From contig MGFR01000001.1 of the NCBI GenBank assembly GCA_001791995.1, positions 14,880-78,879 on the forward strand: a DNA stretch of 64,000 nucleotides, given 5' to 3'. This document shows, piece by piece, positions 2,701 to 46,619 of this stretch. The DNA is from Candidatus Woesebacteria bacterium RBG_13_46_13 (lineage in GTDB: Bacteria; Patescibacteriota; Microgenomatia; UBA8517). Position 1 is the stretch's first letter; each line of letters begins with the position of its first letter. The translations under genes were made by a program, and so were the position numbers. The notes under the pieces were generated by a model. It was given only the letters and a program-made list of their open reading frames with translations, did not search any database and was not told the DNA's origin.

Positions 2701-2709
2701 TTGGGGCCA

Positions 2710-3093: not shown

Positions 3094-3097
3094 TAGA

Positions 3098-3424
3098 TTA
3101 AACCAGGGGTTCCTGGCCGATTTTATCTTGTGCCAAAAGGTGGTTACAGTAAGAGTCCATTCCTGTCAGTTGTCTTATTGCCTGTGCCTGTCGCATAACC
3201 TCCTCCATGATTGCGGCATCCTCGTTTAATCTCCTTACCAGTTCGGCCGAACTGTCGTTTTTGGGAGCAAACAGCAATATATGAGCTGCAGTGATGACGA
3301 GTCTGCCCTTGGCAGTAGCATATTCAATAAATGCTACCTCGTCCTGCCCGGCAAGTTCCCTGGCCAAAAAGGCAATATGTTCTCTTAGCTCTTCGTTAAA
3401 ATATGGTCTAGCTTGTTCTACCAT
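3098..3424 (-). CDS. Hypothetical small acidic protein, tandem paralog B.
   Basis: 108-aa ORF, paralogous to 2710..3093 (LLFAPKNDSSAELVRRL...EEVMRQAQAIRQLTGMD vs LIFAPLPSSGEIQLAGEL...GEVIRRAEVIRQFQGTD). Confidence 0.5.
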   Translation of the reverse strand: MVEQARPYFNEELREHIAFLARELAGQDEVAFIEYATAKGRLVITAAHILLFAPKNDSSAELVRRLNEDAAIMEEVMRQAQAIRQLTGMDSYCNHLLAQDKIGQEPLV

Positions 3425-3451
3425 AGTCAGGGGGTATTATATCAAACTATA

Positions 3452-4549
3452 TCACTTGTAGCCAATCGGCTTTGAAGTTAAGACCAATCCCAGGGATATT
3501 TTTTTGGTTTTTGTATCCAAATCCTGAACATAACAATCGATCTCTTCGCCTTCCGTGAATTTCTTTCCGGGAGGAATCTGGGTGATATGGACCAGCCCTT
3601 CTATCCCCGGCTCAAGTTCGATGAAGACTCCGAAGTCCGAGACCTTCACAACCTTGCCCCTAACTTTGGATTCGGCCTTGTATTTTTCTCCGATCTCTTC
3701 CCAGGGGTCTTTTTGGGCCTGCTTCAAGGACAGGGCGATTCTGCCGTCCTTGATGCCTAAAACTTTAACTTTGACTTTATCCCCCACCGAGACAATATCG
3801 GAAACTTGGATGACCTTGCCCCAGGCAAGCTCCGAAATATGGACCAGGCCTTCAACCAAAGGAGAATCCTTGCCCAAATCCAACTTGACAAAACAGCCGA
3901 AGCCGGCAACCGTGGTCACAACGCCGTCATAAAGGCTGCCTTCTTTAATCTTTTTAATCGCCTCTTTGGCTTTTTTGATATCTTCCGCCTCCGAGACCGC
4001 TTTTTCGGAAAGCACAACTTTGTTTGCCAGTTTATCCACGTCCAATACGACCGCCTTGAAATATTTCCCGACCAGTCCGTTGGTATCCTTATTGGCCTCT
4101 TTACCCAGCTGTGATCCAGGTATGAATCCCAATACTCCTTCGACATCAACCGTTACTCCCGAGGGGTTAACCCCTTTGCCGAATACCGCAACCGGCGTTC
4201 CGTCTCTCTGGGCCTGTTCGAGTCTCTCCCAAGAGGCATCAAAGGCCGCCTGCCTAAGCGACAAAAGAACCGTACCGTCTCGGGTTTCGGGAATTAAGAC
4301 CGTAGCCGTTACCTCATCCCCGATTTTAAGATTTTTAATCAAATCGCGGGCCTCGGTGAAGGCTTTCTCGGCCACTACTCCTTCGGCCTTGCCGCCGACA
4401 TCAAGAATTAAACTTGCGGGGCCTTTGGCCAGAATTTTTCCCCTGACCCTTTGGCCAGCGGAGAATGCTTTGACTTTGTTTTGGGCCATGGCAAGAAGCT
4501 CCGCCATGGTTTTCGGCTCTGAAGAGTTAGTCTTGGTAGTTTTGCTCAC
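3452..4549 (-). CDS. rpsA: 30S ribosomal protein S1, short four-S1-domain form
   Basis: Repeated S1 domains (GxV..G.V....G.FV.L ... GLVHISE). The 365-aa length is typical of CPR S1. It starts about 30 nt downstream of the 5S rRNA with an AAGGA RBS. Confidence 0.9.
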   Translation of the reverse strand: MSKTTKTNSSEPKTMAELLAMAQNKVKAFSAGQRVRGKILAKGPASLILDVGGKAEGVVAEKAFTEARDLIKNLKIGDEVTATVLIPETRDGTVLLSLRQAAFDASWERLEQAQRDGTPVAVFGKGVNPSGVTVDVEGVLGFIPGSQLGKEANKDTNGLVGKYFKAVVLDVDKLANKVVLSEKAVSEAEDIKKAKEAIKKIKEGSLYDGVVTTVAGFGCFVKLDLGKDSPLVEGLVHISELAWGKVIQVSDIVSVGDKVKVKVLGIKDGRIALSLKQAQKDPWEEIGEKYKAESKVRGKVVKVSDFGVFIELEPGIEGLVHITQIPPGKKFTEGEEIDCYVQDLDTKTKKISLGLVLTSKPIGYK

Positions 4550-4579
4550 TGATCATGTCCTTCTTTCTTTTTTGAGAGC

Positions 4580-4706
4580 ACTGTTCTGGCGATGAAGTAT
4601 TTTCGCGCCCAGTTGCCCGGGAACTATCGTCCTCGCTGAGGCGTTTGACTTCTGAGTTCGGAATGGGATCAGGTCGTTCCACCTCGCTCCAATCACCAGA
4701 ACAGTG
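4580..4706 (-). rRNA. rrf: 5S rRNA
   Basis: The minus-strand sequence contains the 5S core CCTGATCCCATTCCGAACTCAGAAGTCAAACGCC. The terminal helix CACTGTTCTGGTG pairs with CATCGCCAGAACAGTG. Ends are approximate within 5 nt. Confidence 0.8.
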
Positions 4707-4749
4707 CCCTCAACTAATGCTATTTTGTACTTTTAAATCTGAAGAGAAA

Positions 4750-7668
<2,919 letters not shown>

Positions 7669-11815: not shown

Positions 11816-11977
11816 AAACAAACGCCATCCCTGGCGATAATCAGGGAAACGCACGGTTTGCCTTAGACGGAGAAGTCTCTTGAGACTGCTAGCATGCAAA
11901 TCTCATGAGGAGCAGTCTCCCAAGGAGATCTATCCGCCAAGGGCAATCCTATTTCAAACGCACAACGGAGGTGCACA

Positions 11978-13159
11978 ATGAAAGGTCGCGGAATCAAGCT
12001 TCTGGCTTTGTTCGCGATCCTCGTTTTGGCTCTCGGCGCCACCGGCGCGGCCTTCGCGGCCCCGCCTCCGGCACCGAACGCCACCGGTCAGGACCAGGTC
12101 TGTCCGCACGACACGGATGGTTGGTCGTCCCATCAGGATCCCGGAACCTTCGGGGCTGTTGAGGGCGCTACCAACTACTGCGTCAAGGGCGGCAGTGAGC
12201 AGTCCGAATGCACCGGCTACCTCGAGATCGGCTCCTTCGAGTTTGTCTCGGGGATCCTCGGCGCTGAAGGCGCCTGCGGCCTTTCCCACTGGTCCTACCA
12301 GATGGAAGATGAGCCGGAGGTGGCCAGCGTTAGCGTCGACCCCGGCTCGTGTTACTGGGATGGCGCGTCCTACACGGACGTCGTCGTCGACATGACCGGC
12401 GCCGGCACGCTGACCATCACCGGGCCTGGCGGGCCGTACACCCGAACGGGTGACGACACGCTGACCTTGGGACCCGGCAGCTACAGCTGGACTTTCGTTC
12501 CGGCCGAGGGCTACGAACTTGAAGGACCCGGCTCGGGTTCCTTCGAAGTCGGGACGTGTGAACCCGAAACGGATCCCGCCTCGGTGAGTGTCGAACTCGG
12601 AACCTGCCGCTGGAGCGAGCAGTCAGGGTCTCAGACCCCACTGTCTTTCACCATCAGCGGCGAGGGCACGTTCTCGATCAACGGTTCCGACTACACCTCC
12701 GACGACGAGATCCTGCTCACGCCGGGAACCTACGGCTGGACTTTCGTTCCGGCCGAGGGGTATCACCTGGTTGGGCCGGGCTCCGGGAGCGTCGAAGTGC
12801 TCTCTTGTGAGCCTCCGCCTCCTGGCGGGGCATCGGGTTCGTTTGCGCTGTACTGCGGTGGCGGGATCAACGTCGCCCTGTCCAATGCCCAGCTCACGAT
12901 CGACGACCTGGACCCGATCCTCGAGAACGGGTCGTACGGGCTGAGCCTCGGTGAGCACACCTTCCTCTGGGAGGCTTTGCAGGGGTTTGAATTCCCTGAG
13001 GGCTTCCTGCTGCGAGGCGTCTTCACCATCGTCCCGTGCGGACCGCCCGACGAGCCGCCTACCGGCCCCGAAGGAGCTCTTCCCATCGCGGAAGGACTCG
13101 CTTTCCTGGCCTTCAGCGGCCTTGGAGCGCTCGGCATCCGGCGCATGAAGAAGCACTAG
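11978..13159 (+). CDS. Secreted Cys-rich repeat protein. Strongly GC-rich and compositionally foreign.
   Basis: 393 aa with signal peptide MKGRGIKLLALFAILVLALGATGAAFA. Two copies of a module of about 75 aa (PGSYSWTFVPAEGYELEGPGSGSFEVGTCEP / PGTYGWTFVPAEGYHLVGPGSGSVEVLSCEP). C-terminus is LPIAEGLAFLAFSGLGALGIRRMKKH, a hydrophobic helix plus a basic tail. Codon usage is dominated by GCC/GGC/CCG, with GC roughly 60-65% by eye. RBS is GGAGG. Confidence 0.8.
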   Translation: MKGRGIKLLALFAILVLALGATGAAFAAPPPAPNATGQDQVCPHDTDGWSSHQDPGTFGAVEGATNYCVKGGSEQSECTGYLEIGSFEFVSGILGAEGACGLSHWSYQMEDEPEVASVSVDPGSCYWDGASYTDVVVDMTGAGTLTITGPGGPYTRTGDDTLTLGPGSYSWTFVPAEGYELEGPGSGSFEVGTCEPETDPASVSVELGTCRWSEQSGSQTPLSFTISGEGTFSINGSDYTSDDEILLTPGTYGWTFVPAEGYHLVGPGSGSVEVLSCEPPPPGGASGSFALYCGGGINVALSNAQLTIDDLDPILENGSYGLSLGEHTFLWEALQGFEFPEGFLLRGVFTIVPCGPPDEPPTGPEGALPIAEGLAFLAFSGLGALGIRRMKKH

Positions 13160-14411: not shown

Positions 14412-15869
14412 AAAGGAGGTGATCCATCCGCACCTTCCAGTACGGATACCTTGTTACGACTTAATCTTCATCGCTGGTGTCACCTTCTGCCCGAACATCG
14501 GACATTCGGGTGCCCCCAACTTTGCTGACTTGACGGGCGGTGTGTACAAGACCTGAGAACGTATTCACCGCGACATAGCTGATTCGCGATTACTACCAAT
14601 TCCGCGTTCATGAGGGCGAGTTGCAGCCCTCAATCCCTACTGAGAAGCCGTTTGATGGGATTAGCTCCGTGTTACCACTTGGCAACCCATTGTCGGCTTC
14701 ATTGTAGCATGTGTGTTGCCCCGGACATAAGGGCCATGCTGACTTGACGTCGTCCCCACTTCCTCCTCGCAAAGCGAGGCTGTACCATATGAATATTCAA
14801 CATATGGAAGGGGTTGCGCTCGTTACCCCACTGAAGGGAACACCCCACGGCACGAGCTGACGACAGCCATGCAACACCTGTGCTATCATCCTTACGGATC
14901 GGTCTCCGTTTCTGGAGACTTAAACGATAGCATGTCAAACCCGGGTAAGGTCCTTCGGTTCGTCTCGAATTAAACCACATGCTCCACTGGTTGTGCAGGT
15001 CCCCGTCAATTCCTTTGAGTTTTAAGCTTGCGCTCGTACTCCCCAGGCGGCTCGCTTAACGCGTTAGCTTACGGAACCCCCGATAAATCGAGGATCCCTA
15101 GCGAGCAAAGTTTACGGCTAGGACTACAGGGGTCTCTAATCCCTTTCGCTCCCCTAGCTGTCGTTCCTCAGCGTCAAAGATTCCCTAGCTACTTGCCTTC
15201 GCCCTTGGTGTTCCTCTCGATATCAACGGATTTCACCCCTACACCGAGAGTTCCAGTAGCCCCGAGAACTTTCAATCTAAGTAGTATTACACCCCTTCCC
15301 AAGGTTAAGCCCTGGTCTTTGAAGTGTAACTTACCTAGTCGCCTACGAAACGCTTTACGCCCAGTAAATCCGGATAACGCTTGCACCCTCTGTATTACCG
15401 CGGCTGCTGGCACAGAGTTAGCAGGTGCTGATTCTCCAAGCTCATTGGTGCTTGGCAAAAGAGGTTTACAACCCGAAGGCCTTCATCCCTCACGCGGCGT
15501 CGCGGCGTCAGACTTTCGTCCATTGCGCACGATTCCCAGTTGCTGCCACCCGTAGGTGTATGGGCCGTGTCTCAGTCCCATTCTGGGGGGTCACGCTCTC
15601 ACGTCCCCTACCCGTCATAGCCTTGGTAGGCCATTACCCTACCAACAAGCTGATGGGAGATAGGCTCATCCCTCGGTGCGCAGTTACGCGCTTTCTCCTT
15701 GCGGACTTATGCGGTATTAGCCCGTCTTTCGACGGGGTATTCCCCGCCAAGGGGTAGATTCCTATCTTATACTCAGCCGTTCGCAACTTGCCTCTTGCGA
15801 GGCCCGTTTTACTTGCATGCTTAAAGCACGCCGCCAGCGTTCATCCTGGACCAGGATCAAATCCTCAAA
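14412..15869 (-). rRNA. rrs: 16S rRNA, about 1.46 kb, no intron apparent
   Basis: Minus-strand 5' end GAGGATTTGATCCTGGTCCAGGATGAACGCTGGCGGCGTGC. The 3' end is ...GTAACAAGGTATCCGTACTGGAAGGTGCGGATGGATCACCTCCTTTC. Confidence 0.95.
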
Positions 15870-16201
15870 TTGTGACGGAAGGAAAACCACACGAACGTGG
15901 CTCTCCCGTCCTATATAAAGCACTCCTAGTCATTTCCTGATTGCCGAATATTAGCATTCGGTCCCGCATGGCTCCCGTTAGAGCCTGGTGGGATCAAGAA
16001 ATATTAATTGCTGTCTTTAATTGTTAAGGTTCAAGCTAAAAGTAACAGGAAACAAGCTATAAGTAGGCAGAAAAGACGAAAAATCAAACTAATGAAAATA
16101 AACTAAGCCTTTCTTTACTTGTAACTTGTTGCCTAATACTTTTAAGGTCCTGAAGTTGTTACCCTAAAGGGAAGTTAACCTCTACTGAAGAAAATTTTGA
16201 C

Positions 16202-16576: not shown

Positions 16577-17185
16577 TTAGCGACGCTCGCTCCCCCGCCT
16601 GCGGCGGGAGCCCTCTTTACTGGCCACTATGGTTTCTTTGAGAATCTTTCTTAAGTTATCCATTAAATCATCGGCCGTTCCTTCGTTCGTTATCACATAA
16701 TTGGCCATTTCAAGACAACCCGTCACGTTTATTTTCGAGGGATCGCTGCATTTTTCGGTTTCGCGCCTGTCCATGGCCAAAAAATCCTCCCAGCTTTTGG
16801 GTTCACCCTCCCTGGCTCTTGCCAAGACACGCTTAAATCTTGCCTCGGGAGAGGCTGTAACTCCAATAATTATTGCCCCCAGATGGCTTCTGAGAAGTTC
16901 TATCTCGGCGGGATTCCTGATACTATCTATTACTACTTTTGTTTGGGAAGAGATGTCCACTTTCTCCCCTGTTCGTATCGCCAAGACCCCATCTCCGAAT
17001 TCTTTTCTTAGCTCATCACCCATATCCTGGAGGCTCTCGCGGTTTATCGGAAGACCTCTTTTTTTGAGTTCCTCCCGGATTACATCCGAGAGCGAATAAT
17101 ATTCAAATCCAAGATCTTTTAAGATCTGTCCAACGCTACCTTTACCGCTGGCAATGGGACCTACCAAACCAAAAACTTGGCGCAT
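16577..17185 (-). CDS. P-loop nucleotide/nucleoside kinase-like protein (dephospho-CoA kinase / NMP kinase fold).
   Basis: Walker A GLVGPIASGKGSV at the N-terminus. 202 aa with a basic C-terminal tail. Confidence 0.7.
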   Translation of the reverse strand: MRQVFGLVGPIASGKGSVGQILKDLGFEYYSLSDVIREELKKRGLPINRESLQDMGDELRKEFGDGVLAIRTGEKVDISSQTKVVIDSIRNPAEIELLRSHLGAIIIGVTASPEARFKRVLARAREGEPKSWEDFLAMDRRETEKCSDPSKINVTGCLEMANYVITNEGTADDLMDNLRKILKETIVASKEGSRRRRGSERR

Positions 17186-17190
17186 GAGGA

Positions 17191-17409
17191 TTATTCTACC
17201 ACAGGGCTAGGATGCCCGGGGGCTACATTGGCAGAAATTCTATCAAGCCTACGCGAGACTCTTTCTAAATCCCTACTTCCCCTGACCGGCCTGATGCTTT
17301 CTCGTAAGCTAGCGGCAACCGAAGATAGCTCGCCTGCAATTTTCTGAAGCCTTCCTTCCACCAAAGACAATCTGCTTCCAATTTCTTGTGCTTCGTGTCT
17401 TTCGTGCAT
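17191..17409 (-). CDS. Hypothetical small coiled-coil protein of about 72 aa, translationally coupled to the upstream gene.
   Basis: Its ATG overlaps the stop of 17409..17651 in a TAATG arrangement. The track lists a longer ORF, 17191..17607, that would overlap the upstream gene. Confidence 0.35.
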   Translation of the reverse strand: MHERHEAQEIGSRLSLVEGRLQKIAGELSSVAASLRESIRPVRGSRDLERVSRRLDRISANVAPGHPSPVVE

Positions 17410-17651
17410 TACTTCTTGCCTTTTTTTTGGAAAAAGGCAAGGTAAATGATCGGGAGGATCCCTACGCTGTTGACGATCAACAGCGCCAGAAACCACCCTT
17501 TCTGTGCTTTTCTGGCGGATTTCCAAAGCGCCATCCCCCTCCAAACGAGGTCCCAGAGGATGACGGGAACCATTACCCACCAGAAATAAAAGGGCATATT
17601 CGCCCAATTATTGTAATTCATGGCCCAAAACATAAATATATTATAGAACAA
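17409..17651 (-). CDS. Small membrane protein, PLDc_N-like (cardiolipin synthase N-terminal-like) family.
   Basis: 80 aa with two TM segments and the W-rich motif WDLVWRGMALWKSARK. Confidence 0.6.
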   Translation of the reverse strand: MFYNIFMFWAMNYNNWANMPFYFWWVMVPVILWDLVWRGMALWKSARKAQKGWFLALLIVNSVGILPIIYLAFFQKKGKK

Positions 17652-17659
17652 GAAGGATA

Positions 17660-17720
17660 AAAAAGAGAAGCCCTGGAGAGATTCGACGAGTTGCGTGTCG
17701 AAATTTCCCTCTCCAGGGCG
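17660..17720 (-). terminator. Strong intrinsic terminator at the end of the GC-rich non-coding region.
   Basis: 11-bp perfect stem (plus 17671-17681 with 17710-17720) and a 28-nt loop. On the minus strand it is followed by CTTCTCTTTTTTATCC. Confidence 0.6.
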
Positions 17721-18072
17721 GAAACAATGGTGGTCGCCAGGGCGATATCGGGGTCTTTTTCAACGGGGGCTGGCGGTTTTGCCACCTACGAACTACGCTT
17801 CCTGCGGCCTTGCATCTCCCGCGAAGGGTTTCGACTAGGCACCGCGTTGGCGCCAATGTCGAGCATAAGCCGCGACTGACCCGGCGGTGTATTTCTTGTG
17901 CCAGATCTTGCCTTATCCGCGCAGACCCGATGTCAAACCACGAATGTGCTGCTTCCCCGCAGCAGACGGAATGGCCCCTCGGTAACTCCCGTGTCGCCCT
18001 GACGACCCCGAGAAACCAGCAAGAATTATGTAAGCTTCTCGGGGGCGTCAGTTAAACAACAAAATCAATGTG
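17660..18072 (-). ncRNA. Candidate structured non-coding RNA of about 410 nt, GC-rich, identity unresolved.
   Basis: There is no credible ORF in any frame. GC is roughly 60% against a mid-40s background. On the minus strand there is a near-consensus promoter TTGACA-N16-TAAAAT (plus 18080-18107). Then multiple GC-rich hairpins, for example TGCTGC-GGGGAA-GCAGCA and CCCGAGAA...TTCTCGGG. It ends in an 11-bp perfect stem GCCCTGGAGAG/CTCTCCAGGGC followed by TTCTCTTTTTT. Confidence 0.4.
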
Positions 18073-18079
18073 CGCAATT

Positions 18080-18107
18080 ATTTTAGCAAGAATAGGAAAG
18101 TTGTCAA
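18080..18107 (-). promoter_or_regulatory. Near-consensus sigma70 promoter TTGACA-N16-TAAAAT reading leftwards into the GC-rich non-coding region.
   Basis: Minus-strand -35 TTGACA is plus 18102-18107. The -10 TAAAAT is plus 18080-18085. Confidence 0.5.
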
Positions 18108-18130
18108 TTCCCTACCTAAAATGGTAAAAT
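18101..18130 (+). promoter_or_regulatory. Candidate promoter TTGTCA-N18-TAAAAT for the tRNA Glu-Lys-Gln cluster. It is back-to-back with the minus-strand promoter.
   Basis: TTGTCA at 18101-18106 and TAAAAT at 18125-18130. tRNA-Glu starts at 18149. Confidence 0.4.
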
Positions 18131-18148
18131 AACTCGCTTCCTGGGTTT

Positions 18149-18221
18149 GACGCCATCGTCTAACGGCTTAGGACGAGGCCCTTTCAAGGCCTAAATACGA
18201 GTTCGATTCTCGTTGGCGTCA
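18149..18221 (+). tRNA. tRNA-Glu (anticodon UUC)
   Basis: GACGCCATCGTCTAACGGCTTAGGACGAGGCCCTTTCAAGGCCTAAATACGAGTTCGATTCTCGTTGGCGTCA. Anticodon loop CTTTCAA. Confidence 0.9.
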
Positions 18222-18232
18222 CAGAAGAGCTT

Positions 18233-18304
18233 GGGCCCATAGCTCAACGGCAGAGCAAGTGCCTTTTAAGCACGTGGTTGGGGGTTCGAATCCCTCTGGG
18301 CTCA
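18233..18304 (+). tRNA. tRNA-Lys (anticodon UUU)
   Basis: GGGCCCATAGCTCAACGGCAGAGCAAGTGCCTTTTAAGCACGTGGTTGGGGGTTCGAATCCCTCTGGGCTCA. Anticodon loop CTTTTAA. Confidence 0.9.
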
Positions 18305-18309
18305 CATAA

Positions 18310-18383
18310 TGCGGGATCGTCTAATGGTAGGACAGTGGTCTTTGGAACCATCAATCGGGGTTCGAATCCCTGTCCCGCAGCCA
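18310..18383 (+). tRNA. tRNA-Gln (anticodon UUG), U1-A72 pair, CCA encoded
   Basis: TGCGGGATCGTCTAATGGTAGGACAGTGGTCTTTGGAACCATCAATCGGGGTTCGAATCCCTGTCCCGCAGCCA. Anticodon loop CTTTGGA. Confidence 0.9.
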
Positions 18384-18403
18384 AACAGGACACTCCAAAA
18401 GGC

Positions 18404-18940
18404 TTATTTTTTGCTTCGACCGTTTGGCGTGTTTCCTTTTCTTGGACCATTTGGAATATCGTTTCCTTGATTTTCAATTCCCTGATAAAACTTTCTCATC
18501 ATGCCCCGACGTGACCAAACATCATTCAGTCCCAACTGATCGATGACAAATCCGGCAATAATTATCGAAGCTATAAAACCGGCAGTTATGACCAAGAAGT
18601 TTTTCTTGTATGAAAAATCGTATTTCTTTAATAACCACACGCCCAAGGAAATTCCCAAGATTGCCAATATCGGTATCCACAACGGGAAACTTTCCAGCAT
18701 TGCCTCAAGTCTCCACTGGCCCATCGGACCGTGCTTACGAAGCGAAAACATGATAATGTTGACCAGGAATACGGATGCAACGCTTAAGGCCGCAAGTCCG
18801 CCAATTGAAAACACAGAACCGAGGACAAAATACCACTTCGGTTTCATGGTGATTTGACCGGAAGTTACTTTTGACATAACTTCTTTTTCAAAATCAACCA
18901 TCTTTTGTTTCTTTGATATTATTTTTTTATTTTTTGACAT
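18404..18940 (-). CDS. Multi-pass membrane protein co-transcribed with an ECF sigma factor. It may be an anti-sigma or regulon partner. AT-rich.
   Basis: 178 aa with a short cytoplasmic N-terminus then 4 TM segments. It overlaps the sigma gene's end by 22 nt. GC is clearly lower, roughly mid-30s percent by eye. Confidence 0.5.
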   Translation of the reverse strand: MSKNKKIISKKQKMVDFEKEVMSKVTSGQITMKPKWYFVLGSVFSIGGLAALSVASVFLVNIIMFSLRKHGPMGQWRLEAMLESFPLWIPILAILGISLGVWLLKKYDFSYKKNFLVITAGFIASIIIAGFVIDQLGLNDVWSRRGMMRKFYQGIENQGNDIPNGPRKGNTPNGRSKK

Positions 18941-19467
18941 ATGTTTTTCATTATAATTTTGGCACGGTTGATTCTTGTTCCCACCGTGCCTATCGGAATC
19001 CTTAAGACATCACTAATTTCTTCATATGATTTTTCTTCTAGATAGTAAAGCGATAGGGGTTCTCTATAAGATACGGCCATCTGGCTTAGACAGTTGTGGG
19101 CACGGGTTTTTAATTCCTTTTTAATGAAATCGTCCTCAATATCTATTCCGCTGTCAAAATCTTTCTCTTTATATAAAGAAACCTGTTTTTTCTGTTTATT
19201 AATTAGGTTCATCGCTTGGTTATGGACAATCCTATATATCCAACTACTGAACTTCTTTCTTGTATCAAAGCCGTTTAAGTTTATGTAGGCCTTGATAAAA
19301 GACTCCTGAACGATGTCGGCCGCATTATTTTCATCACCGATTAAATAATTTGCATACCTCATAAGCTTATCCTGATAGCGTTTAATGACATGAACATAAA
19401 GTTCCTTGTCTTTTTTGCAAATCAGCTCGATTATTTTCTCGTCCGATAATGTCGATGGGTCTTTCAT
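18919..19467 (-). CDS. ECF-type RNA polymerase sigma-70 factor
   Basis: Region 2 (DIVQESFIKAY, FSSWIYRIVHNQAMNLI) and region 4 HTH (SYEEISDVLRIPIGTVGTRINRAK). 182 aa. Confidence 0.85.
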   Translation of the reverse strand: MKDPSTLSDEKIIELICKKDKELYVHVIKRYQDKLMRYANYLIGDENNAADIVQESFIKAYINLNGFDTRKKFSSWIYRIVHNQAMNLINKQKKQVSLYKEKDFDSGIDIEDDFIKKELKTRAHNCLSQMAVSYREPLSLYYLEEKSYEEISDVLRIPIGTVGTRINRAKIIMKNICQKIKK

Positions 19468-19569
19468 AATTTCCTATTTTAGTATAAATCCCGTACATCT
19501 ATTCTCCTGTTTACTTCCATTACCAAAACCCCACTTTCGAGGTGAGGTTTGGTAATTACTCTCTGGCTT

Positions 19570-19953
19570 TCAGCGGTTAGCGTTTCGGCCATAACCCGAC
19601 CTTTGTCCCTGGCCCTGTCCTGAACCGTCTCTAAGACCGAGTCCAAGTTCGGTTCTGATTTTATTTGCTTCTTCGGTTTTACCCTCAAGCATTAACTTAT
19701 GCATTTCGGCAAACCTGGCAAAATTACCTTCGTTAACCACTTGGGTAACCCTACCCTTGCCCAGCATCAGTTCTTTCCAGGCATTGTAATCCCTATTTTC
19801 AAACGCCTTGGTCATCGCCTCGTGCCTCTCGGGAGAGTAGTTAGGACCCTGAACATTGGGGTCCCCCCTGTAGGCCAACGCACTTGATGTGGTGGCAAAT
19901 AATACCCCTGCCCCAAGTGCAATTGCAGATAAAGTTAAAATTGTTTTATTCAT
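19570..19953 (-). CDS. Secreted hypothetical protein with a signal peptide and a Gly/Gln-rich tail. It heads the ECF sigma cluster.
   Basis: 127 aa with signal peptide MNKTILTLSAIALGAGVLFATTSSALA. A strong SD, AAGGGGGTG, sits 8 nt upstream, which is unusual for this window. Confidence 0.6.
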   Translation of the reverse strand: MNKTILTLSAIALGAGVLFATTSSALAYRGDPNVQGPNYSPERHEAMTKAFENRDYNAWKELMLGKGRVTQVVNEGNFARFAEMHKLMLEGKTEEANKIRTELGLGLRDGSGQGQGQRSGYGRNANR

Positions 19954-20141
19954 ATTTTTTCACCCCCCTTCATTTTGTTATCCACATGTAATACAAATGA
20001 GGAGAGAATTTTCTTTCAAGGAAATTTATAAGACCTTTTATGCTGTCCCAAATATCTCATTTAGCTTTAGATGTGGTACACGAATCCAAGAAGTTATGGG
20101 CTAAAACGGGTCTAGACCGAGCTGCTCAGCAATAGCGAAGA

Positions 20142-20891
20142 TTACTTCAAAGCCTCTTCAATGGTGACCTTCAGGCTCTCAAAAGGAACCGCTCCGGGGA
20201 CAAGCCAAACATCGCCATTTTTGTTCATAATATAGTTACCCGGTGTACCGTTGACCCCAGCATTTGAACCGCTTTGATAATCCGCATCGACAATGTTTTC
20301 GTACTTCTTGGCCGCATAGCAGGAAGAGAAATCCGCTGCTTTGACTCCCGCTTTGGTTGCTGCAGTTTTTAAACCAGCCTCGGAAAGGGTTGTTTCTTGG
20401 TTGGCAAATACATAGTCCGAAAATTTCCAGAAAGCATCGTTCCCCCCAAGGGCCGAGACGCACTCCGCGGCATTGGCCGCGGGTCTGGCCCAGGGATGGA
20501 GTGTATCCAGAGGAAAGTGTCTATAAACCCAGGCCAACTTGTCTCCGTATTCGGCCACCGCCTGTTGAGCGGTTGTATCGAAAGTTTTACAGAAAGGACA
20601 CTGGTAATCCGAATATTCGATTAAGAAGACTTCAGCATTCAAAGACCCCCTGATGTGATCTTTGTCGCTGGGTTTTTCTAACTTAGAGGCCTCATCGGCG
20701 GTTAGTTTGCCGCTGGTATCCCCAACCGTATCCGTGGGGCTGCCCGTAGATGGGGTGCCTTTTTCCAAGACCGTTACTTTTTGCCACAAAGCCCCAACCG
20801 CTCCGGCAAGAATAATGGTCAAAACCAGAAGCACGGGAACAAATTTATCCAGAAGACCCTTGTTGGAAAGTTTCGGAAGCGATACGGACAT
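20142..20891 (-). CDS. DsbA-family thiol:disulfide oxidoreductase, membrane-anchored
   Basis: N-terminal TM helix, thioredoxin-fold CPFC active site (YSDYQCPFCKTF), 249 aa. Confidence 0.8.
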   Translation of the reverse strand: MSVSLPKLSNKGLLDKFVPVLLVLTIILAGAVGALWQKVTVLEKGTPSTGSPTDTVGDTSGKLTADEASKLEKPSDKDHIRGSLNAEVFLIEYSDYQCPFCKTFDTTAQQAVAEYGDKLAWVYRHFPLDTLHPWARPAANAAECVSALGGNDAFWKFSDYVFANQETTLSEAGLKTAATKAGVKAADFSSCYAAKKYENIVDADYQSGSNAGVNGTPGNYIMNKNGDVWLVPGAVPFESLKVTIEEALK

Positions 20892-20923
20892 GGAAACTAT
20901 TCTTCACCAAAAGCAAATACTTG

Positions 20924-21880
20924 TCAACCCTTAAGTTCGGCGAGGTAACTTAATACATCCATGCCTGCCATGCAGCCGTATCCTGCAGCTGTCACCGCCT
21001 GGCGATAGTGCCAATCGTGCACATCTCCGGCAACAAAAATGCCCGGGACGTTGGTTTTGGAGTTCTCGTAAACTTTGATATATCCCTTCTCGTCAAGCTC
21101 AATGGGGCCTTTAAAAAGCTCACTTTCCGGTCTATGACCGATTGCAATAAATATCCCGTCTAGGGCAAGTTCAGAAGTTGTATTGTCCTTGTTGTTTTTT
21201 AAGATTGCCTTCTCCAGTTTTTGCTCACCTTTCGCTTCAACTACCTCGGTATTCCACAATATTTTAACTTTGGGGTTAGCCATCACTTTTTGCTGCATGG
21301 CCTGGGAGGCCCGGAATGCATCCCTGCGGTGGATAATCGTGACCGAGGTTGCATACTTTGTCAGAACCAAAGCCTCCTCCATTGCAGAATCCCCTCCTCC
21401 GACCACCGCCACGTTCTTGTCCTTGAAAAAAGGAGCATCGCAGGGAGCGCAGGAGGAAACCCCCCTGCCGATAAGTTTGGAGATTCCGGGAGCATCGAGC
21501 CAGAGTGTTGCTGCACCGGTTGCGATGACTATCGTCTTGGCCAGATATTTCTCTCCGGCTGAGCTAATCTCGAAAGGTTTCTTGCCCAGATCAACGCTTT
21601 GGACATTGGACTGGATAAACTCGGCCCCGAACCTCTCGGCTTGTTTCCTCATGGCCATCATTAGGTCGGGCCCCTGAATTCCGTCGGGAAAACCGGGAAA
21701 GTTATCAACGCCGGTTGTGAGCATTAGCTGTCCGCCCCACTTTTCTCCTCCAAGAATAACCGATGAAGCAGCACCGCGAGTGGTATAAATTGCGGCAGTT
21801 AAGGCAGCCGGACCCGAACCAATAATCGCAACATCCCAAGCTTCCCCCTCTTTTGGTTTGAGAGCAAAAACTTCGTCCAT
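20924..21880 (-). CDS. trxB: Thioredoxin-disulfide reductase
   Basis: FAD motif IIGSGPAALTAAIY, a redox-active CAPC pair, NAD(P) motif VVGGGDSAMEEA. 318 aa. Confidence 0.9.
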   Translation of the reverse strand: MDEVFALKPKEGEAWDVAIIGSGPAALTAAIYTTRGAASSVILGGEKWGGQLMLTTGVDNFPGFPDGIQGPDLMMAMRKQAERFGAEFIQSNVQSVDLGKKPFEISSAGEKYLAKTIVIATGAATLWLDAPGISKLIGRGVSSCAPCDAPFFKDKNVAVVGGGDSAMEEALVLTKYATSVTIIHRRDAFRASQAMQQKVMANPKVKILWNTEVVEAKGEQKLEKAILKNNKDNTTSELALDGIFIAIGHRPESELFKGPIELDEKGYIKVYENSKTNVPGIFVAGDVHDWHYRQAVTAAGYGCMAGMDVLSYLAELKG

Positions 21881-21890
21881 TTTTCCTTGA

Positions 21891-22163
21891 CTACATTACG
21901 GGAGCTGCCGGCGGTGTACCACCGGTAGATCCAGTCCCTTCTTCCTTGGCTGGTTCCTCAGCGGTCGTAGCTGTCGGCTCCTCTGTGGAAGCGGGCACTG
22001 TCGGTTCAGGTGTTACAACCGGTGTCTCCGGAACAACTGTCGGCTCGGGAGTAACTACCGGTGTCGGCATAGGTGCTTGAACTGGCGTATCTACCGCCGG
22101 TGCGGCGGGAGTGTCAGTTGGAGCTCCTGGTACTTGCGGGTTCTGTGTTTGATTCGGATCCAA
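21891..22163 (-). CDS. Low-complexity Pro/Thr/Glu-rich ORF filling the trxA-trxB gap. It may use a TTG start, and may not be coding.
   Basis: 90 aa; PT-repeat composition only. Confidence 0.3.
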   Translation of the reverse strand: MDPNQTQNPQVPGAPTDTPAAPAVDTPVQAPMPTPVVTPEPTVVPETPVVTPEPTVPASTEEPTATTAEEPAKEEGTGSTGGTPPAAPVM

Positions 22164-22487
22164 TTAACTCACCCCCTTTTTCAATAAATCTGCGAATGCT
22201 TGTTTTCCGGCAAAGCCCACCTGGCGGTCCAACTCTTTTCCTTCTTTAAAAAGAATCGTTGTGGGGATACTCATCACTCCGAATTTCTGAGCAATGGCTG
22301 GGTTTTCATCAACATTAAGCTTGGCTATGCCTATTTTTCCTTTGTATTCATCGGAGAGCTCCTCAAGGACAGGCTCGGCCATCTTGCAAGGACCGCACCA
22401 GGAAGCCCAAAAATCTACAAGTACCGGAGTTGCGCCTTTTATGACCTTCTCTTCAAAATCTTTCTCGCTGGTATCAAAGGTTGCCAT
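22164..22487 (-). CDS. trxA: Thioredoxin
   Basis: WCGPC active site (FWASWCGPCKM). 107 aa. Confidence 0.9.
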   Translation of the reverse strand: MATFDTSEKDFEEKVIKGATPVLVDFWASWCGPCKMAEPVLEELSDEYKGKIGIAKLNVDENPAIAQKFGVMSIPTTILFKEGKELDRQVGFAGKQAFADLLKKGVS

Positions 22488-22542
22488 GTCGTTTCAATAT
22501 AACGATTGGTGTATAGCTTAGTCAACCTTCAATTTTCACAAT

Positions 22543-24723
22543 CTAAATCTTTTTCAGCTTTAACCTTAAGGAGTTCCCGACCACGGAGACGGAACTGGCG
22601 GCCATCGCGGCCGAGGCAAACATGGGGTTAAGCAACAATCCGAAAAAAGGGTAAAGGACTCCCATGGCAACCGGAATTAATAGCACGTTATAGCCAAAAG
22701 CCCAGAACAAATTTTGCTTGATAATTGCCAAGGTGGCCCTGCTTAAATCCAGAGCGGAGAGAACACTACCAAGATTGCTGTTAACCAAGGTTATTCCCGA
22801 TGTTTCGATGGCCACATCGGTTCCGGTACCCATGGAGATGCCGACGTCGGCAGCCGCCAAGGCCGGGGCGTCGTTGATACCATCCCCCACAAAAGCAACA
22901 CCACCCGTAAACTCTCGAACTTTTTGGGCTTTTTGAGAAGGTAAAACGCCTGCCAAAATATTCTTTATTCCGATTTTTCCCGCAATTCCCTTTGCCGTTC
23001 TCGGGTTATCCCCCGTTACCATCCAAACGTCAATCCTTCTCTTGTCTAATTCCCCGATGACCTCCTTGGCCTCCGGTTTTTCGGTATCGGAAATGGCGAT
23101 AGCCCCCATCGCTTTTCCGTTTACCCCTAAGAGGGCTACTGTTTTCCCCGTTTCTTCCAAGAGTCTGATCCTGTTTTCAAATTTGCCAAAATCGATATTT
23201 TCCTTTTCCATCAGGAGTCTATTTCCCAATACCGATTTTTTCCCGTCAACAACCCCGACTACTCCCATCCCGGAAAAGGATCTAAAACTCTCAACTTTGG
23301 AAAGTGCTGTTTGTTTGTCTTTGGCATACTCCAATACCGCCTCGGCCAAGGAATGCTCCGAACCTTGCTCCAGACTGGCTGCAACTCGGATAATCTCCGC
23401 AGCGCCGATTATCCGGGTAACCCGAGGTTTACCTTGGGTCAATGTTCCGGTTTTATCAAAAATCAAGGTCTTGGTTTTGTTGAGTATTTCAAGCGATGCC
23501 GCGTCTTTAATCAGAATTCCCCTGGAGGCTCCCTTACCGATGGCAACGATAATTGCCGTGGGGGTTGCCAAACCCAGTGCGCAAGGACAAGCGATAATCA
23601 GTACCGAGATCATGCTGACAATGGCCTGGTCCAGGGTTCCAAAACTAATCCAGACAAGAAATGTAAGAGCGGCCAGAGCCAAGACAACCGGAACAAAATA
23701 CGAAGATACCGAATCCGCCAGTCTTTCTATCGGAGCTTTTGAGCCTTGGGCTTCGGAAACAAGCTTGATAATGCCTGCCAACACAGTATCTCCAGCATTA
23801 CTTGTTGCCTTAACCAGCAAGGTTCCGTTGATATTTAAAGTCGCCCCAATTACGTTTGAGCCGATTTGTTTATCAACGGGCAAGCTCTCGCCGGTAACCA
23901 TGGCTTCATCGATGCTGGCCTCTCCCTGAACGATAATTCCGTCAATGGGAATTTTCTCCCCTGGCCTGATGCGCAGCAAATCCCCCACTTTCACCTCTTC
24001 GATGGGGATATCTATCTCTTCTTTACCCCGAACGACACGGGCGCTTTTAGGCTGAAGCATGCCCAGTTTTTTAATCGCATCCGAAGTTCTGGCTTTGGCT
24101 TTGGCCTCCAAATAGCGGCCCAAGAGTATCAGGGTAATAATTACCGCCGAAGTGTCGAAATAGAGATTACCCCCGGGGAATATTTTCGGAAAAAAGAGGT
24201 TGACTATGGAAAATCCGTAGGCGGCGGTAGTTCCCAGCGCCACCAGGGTATCCATACTCGCTGTTTTGTTTTTGAGTCCCGACCAGGCCGCCAAATAAAA
24301 GTCTCTGCCTCCCCAAAACTGGACCACCGAAGCAAAGATGAAGGTTGTGTAGACTTCAAAAAATATTTTCGGTATAAAGGAGAAAATGCCGGGAAAAGTT
24401 CCCGCCATAATAAAAAGGCTTAATATCACCGATACCAGAAATTTAGCCCTCAGCCCCTTAAGCTCCTTGACTTTCTCAGCTTCCTTGATCTTCTGTGTGC
24501 CCTGGGCGGTATCGGTAATGATTGCTCTATAACCCGCTTTGGCTACCTCAGCCGCAAAATCCTTGGGTTTGGCAATCTTGGCATCATATTCCAGAATCGC
24601 CTGCTCGCTGCCGTAATTTACCGAAGCCGAAAGTACCCCTTTTGTTTTTGTAAGATGCTTCTCGAGGAGTTTCGCGCAGGAAGCGCAGTGCATTCCGACA
24701 ATCGGAAATGAAGTTTTTGTCAC
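22543..24723 (-). CDS. copA: Copper-translocating P1B-type ATPase
   Basis: N-terminal HMA domain GMHCASCAKLLE, CPC in TM6 (IIACPCALGLATP), DKTGTLT, and GDGINDAP. 726 aa. Confidence 0.95.
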   Translation of the reverse strand: MTKTSFPIVGMHCASCAKLLEKHLTKTKGVLSASVNYGSEQAILEYDAKIAKPKDFAAEVAKAGYRAIITDTAQGTQKIKEAEKVKELKGLRAKFLVSVILSLFIMAGTFPGIFSFIPKIFFEVYTTFIFASVVQFWGGRDFYLAAWSGLKNKTASMDTLVALGTTAAYGFSIVNLFFPKIFPGGNLYFDTSAVIITLILLGRYLEAKAKARTSDAIKKLGMLQPKSARVVRGKEEIDIPIEEVKVGDLLRIRPGEKIPIDGIIVQGEASIDEAMVTGESLPVDKQIGSNVIGATLNINGTLLVKATSNAGDTVLAGIIKLVSEAQGSKAPIERLADSVSSYFVPVVLALAALTFLVWISFGTLDQAIVSMISVLIIACPCALGLATPTAIIVAIGKGASRGILIKDAASLEILNKTKTLIFDKTGTLTQGKPRVTRIIGAAEIIRVAASLEQGSEHSLAEAVLEYAKDKQTALSKVESFRSFSGMGVVGVVDGKKSVLGNRLLMEKENIDFGKFENRIRLLEETGKTVALLGVNGKAMGAIAISDTEKPEAKEVIGELDKRRIDVWMVTGDNPRTAKGIAGKIGIKNILAGVLPSQKAQKVREFTGGVAFVGDGINDAPALAAADVGISMGTGTDVAIETSGITLVNSNLGSVLSALDLSRATLAIIKQNLFWAFGYNVLLIPVAMGVLYPFFGLLLNPMFASAAMAASSVSVVGNSLRLKLKKI

Positions 24724-24968
24724 CTTTTTTTAAGTACCTGCATCACCTCGGATATGGCTTCTCTGCTTTTACCTGCTTTTATCGAATCCGAGACGCAGGT
24801 CTCGAGATGGTTTTTAAGAACAACCTCGTCGGCTTTCCTCAGGGCAGCCTGAACTGCTATGGATTGATGAACAACGTTGATGCAGTACTCCCCTTGCTCC
24901 AGCATCTTCACCACTTTATCCAAATGGCCCCGGGCAATCTGGTAACGATGTAAGGCTTGGCTTTTCAT
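24720..24968 (-). CDS. csoR: CsoR/RcnR-family metal-sensing transcriptional repressor
   Basis: 82-aa all-helical protein with conserved Cys/His positions (C...H...C). It lies immediately upstream of and overlapping copA. Confidence 0.8.
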   Translation of the reverse strand: MKSQALHRYQIARGHLDKVVKMLEQGEYCINVVHQSIAVQAALRKADEVVLKNHLETCVSDSIKAGKSREAISEVMQVLKKR

Positions 24969-24969
24969 C

Positions 24970-24997
24970 TTGACACTAAAATCGGATATACTATACT
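24970..24997 (+). promoter_or_regulatory. Sigma70-like promoter TTGACA-N16-TATACT for the plus-strand copper operon. A mirror-image TTGACT/TATACT promoter for csoR-copA is on the minus strand, about 24991-25026.
   Basis: TTGACA at 24970-24975 and TATACT at 24992-24997. On the minus strand TTGACT is plus 25021-25026. The palindrome sits between the two -10 and -35 elements of both. Confidence 0.5.
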
Positions 24998-25001
24998 AGT
25001 A

Positions 25002-25020
25002 TATCCCCCCAGGGGGGATA
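25002..25020. promoter_or_regulatory. CsoR-type operator: 19-bp palindrome TATCCCCCCAGGGGGGATA.
   Basis: A perfect inverted repeat around a central A, with AT-flanked C6/G6 tracts. It resembles known CsoR operators of the ATACCC...GGGTAT type. It overlaps the predicted TSS of the plus-strand promoter. Confidence 0.6.
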
Positions 25021-25037
25021 CAGTCAAGAAGAATAAT

Positions 25038-26033
25038 ATGCAGCAAATCTGGTTGGCATTTCTGACGGGCCTGACAAGTGGAGCGATTTCTTGTTTTGCC
25101 ATTCAAGGCGGTCTTTTGGCCTCCTCTCTGGCTCAAGACAAAGAGCCCCAAAAGGATAGTAAATCTCTTAAGATTCTGATTTTCCTGGGTTTTAAAATTC
25201 TTTTTTACAGCCTTCTTGGTTTGGGTTTAGGACTTGCGGGTTCAAAATTGGCGATTTCAACCAATATCCAGGCCGCTCTGCAAATCTTGGTCGGACTATT
25301 TCTCTTGGCAACGGCCGCCAGAATTGTAAATTTGCATCCCCTATTCCGTTATTTTGTAATTCAGCCCCCAACTTTCCTTTACAAAATTATCAAGAAACAA
25401 ACCAAGCTGGGTTCCTATTTTGCCCCGGCGACATTGGGCGCAATGACAATACTTATCCCCTGCGGGGTAACCCAAGCTATGATGCTTTTGGCAATTGCAT
25501 CAGGAAGTGCTCTCTATGGGGCAGCCATTATGTTTGCCTTTAGTCTGGGTACCTCCCCCGTATTTTTTGCCCTCGGTCTGGCAGCCGCCGAAATGTTAAA
25601 AAGGAAGGCCTTCGTTGTAGCCTCCGCAATTCTGATACTCCTGCTCGGCGTGCTCTCATTCAACGCGGGCCTGGCCATCCTCGGCTCAAAATATACAATT
25701 CAGAACCTTTATAAGAGTTTGTTTTCCGTAAATGGCTCCGCCAAACAGGCCAGAATCATCCAGGGTAAACAGGAAGCAACGATTAATGTGACTGCGACAG
25801 GATACAGAGCTGACGTGGACACCCTCAAAGCCGGAGTTCCGGTGAGCCTAAAGCTGGTTAGTCAAAATTCATATAGCTGTGCCAGGGCTTTTGCCATACC
25901 GGAAATGGGAATATCAATACTGCTTGCCCCGACCGGAACCAGGGTTTTGGAGTTTACTCCCACAAAAACCGGCTCTCTTGTCTACACCTGCAGTATGGGT
26001 ATGTATACCGGAAGCTTTAATATCGTTCCATGA
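25038..26033 (+). CDS. Polytopic membrane protein with a DsbD_2/TauE-like TM region carrying Cys, plus a C-terminal cupredoxin-like domain. A putative copper-handling protein.
   Basis: The track ORF 24957..26033 overlaps the promoter and operator, so the start is probably MQQIWLAF at 25038. TM Cys motifs are SGAISCFAIQGG and ILIPCGVTQAMM. The C-terminal beta-domain ends PTKTGSLVYTCSMGMYTGSFNIV. Confidence 0.65.
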   Translation: MQQIWLAFLTGLTSGAISCFAIQGGLLASSLAQDKEPQKDSKSLKILIFLGFKILFYSLLGLGLGLAGSKLAISTNIQAALQILVGLFLLATAARIVNLHPLFRYFVIQPPTFLYKIIKKQTKLGSYFAPATLGAMTILIPCGVTQAMMLLAIASGSALYGAAIMFAFSLGTSPVFFALGLAAAEMLKRKAFVVASAILILLLGVLSFNAGLAILGSKYTIQNLYKSLFSVNGSAKQARIIQGKQEATINVTATGYRADVDTLKAGVPVSLKLVSQNSYSCARAFAIPEMGISILLAPTGTRVLEFTPTKTGSLVYTCSMGMYTGSFNIVP

Positions 26034-26227
26034 GCGGAAAAACTTACAAAATTACGGGCATGGATTGTCCCAGTTGCGCAATGTATATCCAGAGCGAACT
26101 TGAAGATGCGGGGGTTGATGCCGAGGTAAATTATGCATCGCAAAAGCTAATCCTAAAAAATGGAAATCTAAGCTTCTCCGAGGTAAAAAAACTGGTTGAA
26201 AAGGCGGGTTATAAGCTTATTCCATAG
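26030..26227 (+). CDS. copZ: Copper chaperone, HMA domain
   Basis: 65 aa with the GMDCPSCAMYI (MxCxxC) metal-binding motif. Confidence 0.85.
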   Translation: MSGKTYKITGMDCPSCAMYIQSELEDAGVDAEVNYASQKLILKNGNLSFSEVKKLVEKAGYKLIP

Positions 26228-26897
26228 TCTTTTCTGGACCATGGTCGTGGAAAGCCTGGATAAAGGCCACTATTCGGGCCTCATCTACAGATTCCAGTCT
26301 GTCTATCCTCCCCCAGGCTGTTAGGGCCAGGGCGGTATCCATGCCCACTCTGGGGGTCACTATCACCAGCTTGGCTACCTTTGTAAACTCCGAAAGCCTG
26401 CTAACCAGCACCTTACAACTCTCCGTATTGAAGGATTCCGGGAGCGCAACTTCCTTCTCGGGAGGGTTGGCTGGTGTAAACCAACTTATATCCCCTACCG
26501 GCTGGACCTTCATATGCTTTAACAGTTCCCCACTGTCAGTAGACTGGGTAACCGGTTCGTCGTGGGCATATGCCCTGCCGACCGCAAAAGGGCTATATCC
26601 GGAACTTAATTTGGAGCAGTCATACCAAATAACGACGTAGCCGTGTTCCATGGAGTGAATAAAGTAGCCATCGGAAATAAGCCTGTCGTAGACTCCCGGC
26701 TTGGCCCAAACGGCAAAATGCGGGCCCGACGTGGGCGGGTTGGAATTATAGTCAACACCGGCAATATCGGTTACATGATCCCTGCTCAAGGAAGGAACCG
26801 CCTGGCCGGGCAGCGGTTTGGTGACCAATTTATAGATTCCGTAGGAGGCCAAAACAATTACCAAGAAAAACACAAATACGATTTGTCTTTTGCGCAT
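26217..26897 (-). CDS. DUF3105-like membrane-anchored protein
   Basis: N-terminal TM helix, with SGPH and HSMEHGYVVIWY (HxxEHG) motifs. Confidence 0.65.
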   Translation of the reverse strand: MRKRQIVFVFFLVIVLASYGIYKLVTKPLPGQAVPSLSRDHVTDIAGVDYNSNPPTSGPHFAVWAKPGVYDRLISDGYFIHSMEHGYVVIWYDCSKLSSGYSPFAVGRAYAHDEPVTQSTDSGELLKHMKVQPVGDISWFTPANPPEKEVALPESFNTESCKVLVSRLSEFTKVAKLVIVTPRVGMDTALALTAWGRIDRLESVDEARIVAFIQAFHDHGPEKTME

Positions 26898-44559: not shown

Positions 44560-44561
44560 CT

Positions 44562-46615: not shown

Positions 46616-46619
46616 ACTG

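Follow-up and report, generated by a model that had tools for sequence, protein, structure and literature searches.

The window analysed here, a stretch of 64,000 nucleotides from Candidatus Woesebacteria bacterium RBG_13_46_13 (contig MGFR01000001.1), contains an island of three short genes between a DsbA-like gene and a tRNA cluster. The genes encode a sigma factor of the extracytoplasmic function (ECF) type, a membrane protein and a small secreted protein. Together they represent a copy of an ECF sigma signalling cassette of three genes that is conserved across the Patescibacteria (candidate phyla radiation, CPR). All three genes lie on the minus strand, opposite to the tRNAs, and converge on tRNA-Gln, 20 nucleotides (nt) from its 3' end. 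The features of the locus are given below with their strand and, in brackets, the basis of each assignment.

18149-18383, plus strand: cluster of tRNA-Glu(UUC), tRNA-Lys(UUU) and tRNA-Gln(UUG) at the insertion boundary (ARAGORN, Rfam)
18384-18403, no strand: junction of 20 nt from the tRNA-Gln 3' end to the stop codon of the membrane-protein gene (sequence)
18404-18940, minus strand: membrane protein of 178 residues, candidate anti-sigma factor (open reading frame)
18919-19467, minus strand: ECF (group 4) sigma factor of 182 residues, closest to SigW (Pfam Sigma70_r2 and r4_2)
19476-19486, minus strand: TATACTAAAAT, likely a housekeeping-type -10 element for the sigma and membrane-protein genes (conserved in Woesebacteria-type loci)
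19519-19556, minus strand: terminator-type hairpin ATTACCAAACCTCAC…GTGGGGTTTTGGTAAT after the small gene (compensatory pairs)
19570-19953, minus strand: secreted protein of 127 residues, signal peptide and helical core (open reading frame)
19960-19970, minus strand: strong ribosome-binding site AAGGGGGGTGA of the small gene (duplex energy with the 16S rRNA 3' end)
19989-20018, minus strand: predicted ECF-type promoter with -35 TGAAAGAAAA at 20018-20009 and -10 TGTATTA at 19995-19989 (motif in 43/43 loci)
20036-20130, minus strand: DNA element of ~97 nt at the end of the island nearer to DsbA, containing the palindrome GGTCTAGACC (repeats in relatives)
20142-20891, minus strand: DsbA-like thioredoxin-fold protein, host flank belonging to the Trx-TrxB-DsbA block (Pfam)

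The sigma factor and its cassette

Profile searches recognised Pfam Sigma70_r2 (E 5e-16) and Sigma70_r4_2 (E 2.8e-12) in the sigma factor, with no match to region 3. Its domains and its length are those of an ECF (group 4) sigma-70 factor, as the original prediction had assigned it, and the score against the sigma70-ECF model TIGR02937 was 90 bits for a cutoff of 42.9. The best matches were to SigW, in NCBIfam (E 2e-34) as well as in the PDB (5wuq, E 1.6e-25). The scores against the two SigW equivalog models of NCBIfam (NF007223 / TIGR02948), 119.1 bits vs 209 and 106.9 vs 243.1, were however far below the cutoffs, and the protein does not qualify as a SigW equivalog. Its sequence is rich in Lys, Ile, Asn and Glu and is 100% identical to a record from Candidatus Woesebacteria bacterium RBG_19FT_COMBO_47_8. 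The search returned 3599 homologues, the best 120 of which, at 65-86% identity, are named as Woesebacteria, Nealsonbacteria, Gottesmanbacteria, Parcubacteria or Microgenomates group. The sigma factor was not found when viral contigs were scanned, PHROGs returned only generic sigma families and PADLOC nothing.

The loci used for comparison (numbered with the prefix L) were fetched by protein identity, together with one genome per GTDB species, and carry the labels Woese-, Levy-, Nomura- and Zambryskibacteria, Microgenomates and Paceibacteria. Gene order, gaps and overlaps were kept in 44 of 47 loci, the exceptions being cut by contig ends or distant. The layout consists of a small gene (120-134 residues), a gap of ~60-120 nt, a sigma gene (179-183 residues) and an overlapping membrane-protein gene, which encodes 150-190 residues in most loci and more in a few. 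Protein identity across these loci ranged from 55 to 90%, and a dN/dS ratio (nonsynonymous to synonymous divergence) of ~0.1 indicated purifying selection. The cassette was present in 44 GTDB species representatives. Because it recurs with the same gene order in loci across the Patescibacteria, ECF sigma factors of this family are common in CPR and not rare, and the earlier statement that such factors are uncommon there has to be withdrawn. In the searchable literature we found no description of ECF sigma factors in CPR, nor of the cassette, and the main text of the ECF re-classification paper does not mention these phyla (PMC7826278).

Two observations concern the surroundings of the cassette elsewhere. 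Around it, the bins L003/L004 and L005/L006, labelled Woesebacteria and Nealsonbacteria, share long synteny at ~82% DNA identity; the lysyl-tRNA synthetase gene occupies an equivalent position in both, but encodes a class II enzyme in one and a class I enzyme in the other. In the unrelated loci L001, L008, L024, L028, L035, L036 and L046, the cassette has genes for TrxB, Trx, SOD, rhodanese or CopA in its vicinity.

Promoter, terminator and small secreted protein

All 43 loci compared have the motif TGAAAGAAAA-N14-GTATTA upstream of the small gene. The spacing is identical in 42 of them, and the surrounding DNA could not be aligned. The only perfect match in the 64-kb window is the one before the small gene, and looser matches were at chance level (6 seen for 10 expected). 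With its AAC-type -35 and short -10, the motif can be attributed to the predicted cognate promoter of the ECF sigma factor; it takes the place of the GGAAC-N16-CGTC-like sequence that had been proposed for a search. The SigW promoter of B. subtilis has the consensus TGAAAC-N16-CGTA, which the predicted cassette promoter, read as TGAAAG-N17-tGTA, resembles. Within the fetched loci its only positions are before the small gene and, for a few lineages (L013, L015, L016, L021, L034 and L136), before the sigma gene. L136 is a distant variant in which the small gene is not upstream. Here the motif is present twice with perfect spacing, once before the sigma gene and once before a downstream gene with a strong ribosome-binding site, the product of which is a secreted helical protein with a similar glycine-rich tail. 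The small secreted protein thus appears to be the main, perhaps the only conserved, target of the sigma factor.

The hairpin at 19519-19556 is of the intrinsic-terminator type. It comprises 15 predicted pairs, 8 of them with compensatory changes among 16 loci, and ends in a run of T. Hairpins of differing sequence come after the small gene in nearly all loci. Downstream of it, the element TATACTAAAAT ahead of the sigma gene is conserved in Woesebacteria-type loci and likely represents a housekeeping-type -10 from which the sigma and membrane-protein genes would be transcribed.

The small protein starts with a Sec-type signal peptide (…SSALA / YRGDP), so that the predicted mature form comprises residues 28-127, and its residues E42, R43, H44 and H85 are conserved. 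Its ribosome-binding site ranked first among the 58 open reading frames (ORFs) of the window, at −17.5 kcal/mol for a mean of −3.4 and a standard deviation (sd) of 4.1, in agreement with the signal-peptide protein with a strong Shine-Dalgarno sequence described in the original prediction. None of its 884 homologues carries a Pfam domain, and profile searches found no relatives in NCBIfam or the PDB. AlphaFold2 (AF2) gave a confident helical core for residues 40-105, with a predicted local distance difference test score (pLDDT) of 80-90; compared with PDB folds, this model gave no match with E below 4. A Rosetta-stone link, in which the C-terminal extensions of long membrane-protein variants would be homologous to the small protein, was considered and rejected (hhalign probability <1%).

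As a small secreted helical protein and the presumed chief inducible product of a regulator of envelope stress, it is comparable to CpxP, Spy and ZraP, and its equivalent in L136 has an LTEDQ motif and a GYGRG tail. It differs from them in that LTXXQ and Metal_resist searches of 50 family members gave one faint Metal_resist hit, in that no fold match was obtained, and in that the regulator in the cassette is an ECF sigma factor and not a two-component system.

In Parcubacteria-type cassettes no obvious ribosome-binding site is seen. The leader that runs from the ECF promoter to the small gene has instead a conserved box of AGGTCGA, 5-8 nt and TATTAA (L018, L022, L024, L025, L027, L029, L030, L033, L035, L036, L039-L042, L044, L047 and L048).

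Composition, insertion site and origin

The island at 18384-20140 has the lowest guanine-plus-cytosine (GC) content of all windows of its size in the 64 kb (0.401 vs a mean of 0.488, z −3.3), and windows as GC-poor account for 0.08% of the total. The AT-rich character noted in the original prediction is therefore confirmed, but the mid-30s percentage given for it holds for the sigma gene only (0.346); the membrane-protein gene is at 0.397 and the small gene at 0.479. Analysis by codon position, in line with the codon-usage check that had been suggested, gave a divided answer. At positions 1 and 2 (GC12) the sigma gene is at 0.32, z −3.3 with respect to 54 other ORFs. At position 3 (GC3) its value of 0.40 (z −2.0) is at the lower limit of those in the genome, followed by the membrane-protein gene at 0.44 (z −1.4) and the small gene at 0.47 (z −0.9), for a host mean of 0.537 and an sd of 0.069; all three values are within the range of host genes. 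The GC deficit of the sigma gene thus lies mainly at codon positions 1 and 2, that is, in amino-acid composition. Since its GC12 is 0.30-0.38 in every genome compared, the AT-richness of the island is largely an amino-acid effect, and the compositional signal is real but modest.

A much stronger compositional outlier in the window is an ORF of 393 residues at 11978-13159 on the plus strand (GC 0.648, GC3 0.78, z +5.1). It has a signal peptide, internal repeats and a C-terminal hydrophobic anchor ending in RRMKKH, gave no Pfam hit and adjoins a TraG/VirD4-like coupling protein (9572-11704, plus strand). The two genes sit within the 6.7 kb that separate the 16S rRNA gene (14412-15872) from the 23S rRNA gene (4751-7666).

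Relatives of the adjacent TrxB (57-83% identical) provided 80 loci in which the flank of the island could be followed. Nearly all keep Trx-TrxB and most a DsbA-like gene, many with CopA-like, DsbD_2/cupredoxin and DUF3105 genes upstream; the cassette is absent from all 80. A same-strand tRNA Glu-Lys-Gln cluster follows DsbA in L056, L063, L064, L069, L071, L074 and L082, as well as in L057, which is cut after tRNA-Lys, and the gap between DsbA and the tRNAs is ~50-110 nt in six of these (L056, L064, L069, L071, L074 and L082). L056, the closest relative by TrxB (83%), matches both flanks of the window and has the cassette site empty. Its order is tRNAs, a gene of 631 residues, then DUF5652 and AAA_17 genes, which in the window lie beyond the tRNAs. 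Relative to L056, the window has the cassette between DsbA and tRNA-Gln, the tRNA block inverted (as judged from BLASTN orientation) and the 631-residue gene missing; no remnant of the latter was found in the window. Sequence after tRNA-Gln is not conserved among relatives. At the same junction, L086 (9873-11847) carries two unrelated inserted genes next to an inverted tRNA Glu-Lys-Gln block, which argues that the junction between DsbA and the tRNAs is prone to rearrangement.

The conserved redox and metal neighbourhood of the window at 20142-26897, also seen in many relatives that lack the cassette, comprises genes for a DsbA-like protein, TrxB, a Pro/Thr-rich ORF of 90 residues, Trx, a CopA-like P-type ATPase carrying an HMA domain, a DsbD_2-cupredoxin fusion and DUF3105. 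On the other side of the tRNAs, upstream of the DUF5652 gene, the segment 17652-18043 (GC 0.59-0.62) has no convincing ORF and is ~70% conserved with L056 4018-4394; a 16-bp hairpin lies at 17999-18051. Further tRNA genes detected by ARAGORN are a tRNA-Ile with anticodon UAU at 46619-46690 (minus strand), an unusual bacterial way of reading AUA, and two adjacent tRNA-Met genes at 44407-44560.

These comparisons support a discrete insertion between DsbA and the tRNA cluster, and two other explanations of the arrangement could be largely set aside. As the genome was assembled from a metagenome and contigs are often wrongly joined at tRNA clusters, a chimera linking unrelated contigs at the tRNA cluster had to be considered. 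Contigs of two independent assemblies, however, reproduce the junctions on either side, 16636-19498 being spanned by L137 and L138 (99.7-99.9% identity) and 19525-21403 by L139 (99.6%). The arrangement is therefore not an assembly artefact, and the chance of a chimera is negligible. Alternatively, the cassette may be ancestral at this site and have been lost from the relatives. L056 is the one syntenic relative covering both flanks, which leaves some weight to this view, but loss is very improbable in face of the 80 loci without cassette and of the tRNAs abutting DsbA in six of them. In addition, other Woesebacteria-like genomes hold the cassette in a different, recurrent context, DAGK-PAP2-Lon … GreA-LysRS. 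Of the conserved and syntenic arrangement that the original prediction had named as evidence against itself, the first part was thus observed, yet not the second at this site.

In being adjacent to a tRNA 3' end, deviant in overall composition and absent from the syntenic site of relatives, the inserted cassette resembles integrase-mediated tRNA islands. It differs from them in its size of only 1.75 kb, in lacking an integrase and a tRNA 3' repeat, in having its genes converge on the tRNA, and in the 97-nt non-tRNA repeat that flanks the cassette in relatives instead. The partial duplication of the tRNA-Gln 3' end expected near 20.1 kb is not there: its 26-mer has no copy elsewhere in the window at up to 3 mismatches, and boundary or att-like repeats were not found either. 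The horizontal acquisition put forward in the original prediction accordingly stands as far as a discrete insertion into a site empty in relatives is concerned, but the tRNA hallmark on which it leaned is superficial, the tRNA block itself being inverted.

The closest copies of the cassette were found in L051-53, from Parcubacteria group bacterium GW2011_GWE1_40_20 (GC 0.39). Their DNA is 84% identical to the window over 18409-20132, nearly the limits originally given for the island, from right after tRNA-Gln to about 20.1 kb. Synonymous divergence (dS) between the cassettes is 0.64 for L051 and 0.85 for L001 (GC 0.39), whereas the host genes compared with the syntenic L056 (GC ~0.51) gave 1.77 for TrxB, 2.24 for DUF5652 and saturation for AAA_17. 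Synonymous third-position changes on the window branch are biased, with 32 from AT to GC and 14 from GC to AT, whereas they are balanced in L051 (20 and 16) and L001 (20 and 21). This bias fits an arrival from a lower-GC relative followed by drift towards host composition.

About 100 nt of non-coding DNA upstream of the cassette are shared by the window only with L051-53 and L140-142. In L140-142 the cassette lies between two direct repeats of the 97-nt element that are 86.6% identical (L140 160-256 and 1926-2024). L051-53 have a full upstream and a partial downstream copy (L051 15-123 and 1779-1823), L007 has a partial downstream copy (3215-3248), and L124 a solitary one without cassette (11952-12049). 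As a structured RNA the element showed no covariation and no Rfam hit; it is a possible vehicle of the cassette. In the close relative L140, the region after the cassette (2080-5047) contains HTH_17/DUF5677, Mrr_cat-like and Abi_C genes and is a variable region of defence or mobile type.

Several observations weigh against arrival from outside and for an old, vertically inherited resident that a local rearrangement brought to another place in the genome and that owes its AT-richness to the Lys/Ile/Asn/Glu-rich sigma factor. The low GC is mostly accounted for by amino-acid composition, and GC3 of the cassette follows that of host and flanks (slopes 0.75-0.86, r ~0.8, 42 loci), the window copy being only 0.5-1.6 sd below this trend. 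Together with the universally low GC12 of the sigma gene, the tracking of GC3 indicates that inheritance of the cassette within the phylum is mainly vertical. Cassette and flank identity are equal in many locus pairs; outliers in both directions (91% vs 76% for L039-L041, 78% vs 85% for L005-L008) suggest occasional replacement of the cassette. The island holds only the three ORFs and lacks an integrase, an att site and a transposase, and the junction is rearrangement-prone in relatives too. Finally, the dS of host genes refers to L056 and that of the cassette to L051 and L001, which leaves some probability to an intragenomic move. Against such a move stand the cassette dS of 0.64 to a genome of 39% GC, with host-gene dS of at least 1.77 to L056 at 51% GC, the AT-to-GC bias confined to the window branch and the upstream non-coding DNA common only to L051-53 and L140-142. 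On balance we consider a move of a resident cassette rather unlikely. The explanation that we favour, and hold to be probable, is that a self-contained ECF signalling cassette was inserted here with the 97-nt element, most likely from a lower-GC relative; this lateral origin is likely but unproven. An AT-rich patch next to a tRNA can thus be a true insertion even where its compositional signal is owed mostly to the encoded protein and not to a foreign source.

The membrane partner and a proposed circuit

The gene of the membrane protein overlaps the sigma gene by 22 nt in the window and by 13-25 nt in all loci, as expected for the co-transcribed membrane protein of the original prediction; three hydrophobic helices were predicted (36-66, 85-104 and 115-135), however, and not four. 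The AF2 model, in which three long hydrophobic helices come after an N-terminal one, was poor (pLDDT 61) and was rejected for fold searches. Profile searches of Pfam, NCBIfam and the PDB, including PDB sequences, returned no match, and only weak sub-threshold matches to generic membrane families were seen. The family itself is large, with 483 homologues by word search and 1457 cluster representatives by full hidden Markov model search. By these searches, and those with the small protein, neither the membrane partner nor the secreted target belongs to a described family.

The gene directly downstream of an ECF sigma gene usually encodes its anti-sigma factor. On the basis of this general rule, of translational coupling in all loci, of distant family members that still follow a sigma gene, and of exchanged C-termini, we take the membrane protein as a candidate anti-sigma factor. 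Some members bear DUF2202/rubrerythrin-like or DUF5666-like C-terminal extensions, which look like modular sensor ends. The rival view is that the protein is a co-expressed effector or transporter and that the sigma factor is controlled otherwise, for example by the secreted protein or through transcription alone. It gains from the lack of a recognisable anti-sigma domain: the protein has no cysteine and matches neither zf-HC2 nor RskA, and is thus not of the zinc-binding anti-sigma (ZAS) or RsiW type. It also gains from a cytoplasmic N-terminus of only ~35 residues and from the generic nature of the weak matches. Membrane topology is ambiguous as well, the C-terminal tail also being positively charged and the model poor, and the argument for an anti-sigma role is one of genetic linkage, through overlap and pairing in distant members. 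Still, that pairing is kept even where the small gene has moved, and a function unrelated to sigma control seems to us rather unlikely.

Taking the membrane protein as the anti-sigma factor, the cassette could work as follows. Sigma factor and membrane protein would be made together and constitutively from their overlapping genes, probably from the housekeeping-type promoter, and the membrane protein, by way of its lysine-rich N-terminal helix and a conserved KKYDFSYKKNF loop, would keep the sigma factor at the membrane in an inactive state. A signal from the envelope would free the sigma factor, which would then guide RNA polymerase to TGAAAGAAAA-N14-GTATTA. The main product of this promoter would be the small, efficiently translated and Sec-exported protein encoded just upstream, while the hairpin terminator would restrict read-through into the sigma gene. 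In this Woesebacteria lineage, cassette and 97-nt element were probably inserted between DsbA and tRNA Glu-Lys-Gln with inversion of the tRNA block, and the cassette, most likely derived from a lower-GC relative, would now be drifting to host composition.

Parts of this circuit are familiar. With SigW-RsiW of B. subtilis it shares, besides the sequence match of the sigma factor, a membrane-protein gene directly downstream of the sigma gene and coupled to it. RsiW, in contrast, is a single-pass protein with a zinc-binding HxxxCxxC motif, and SigW has a large regulon where the conserved target here is apparently a single secreted protein. A three-part logic of sigma factor, candidate membrane anti-sigma and extracytoplasmic helical protein in one locus is common to RpoE-RseA-RseB of E. 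coli and CnrYXH of Cupriavidus. The small protein has no sequence or fold similarity to RseB or CnrX, however, and is a predicted promoter target and not merely co-transcribed; gene order differs, too.

The CPR have very small genomes with few regulators, and a sigma circuit so well conserved, its promoter being invariant, probably plays a central part in the sensing of their environment. The organisms themselves cannot be grown alone, but promoter, sigma factor and membrane partner form a compact circuit that lends itself to reconstruction and testing in a model host. More tentatively, the cassette may be a Patescibacteria-wide signalling unit with new families of polytopic anti-sigma factors and secreted effectors, the effector being essentially the sole target of the sigma factor, that moves between CPR lineages bounded by the ~97-nt GGTCTAGACC repeat. 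If this were true, it would represent an exchangeable envelope-sensing module in organisms where almost no other regulators exist, possibly tied to host-cell attachment.

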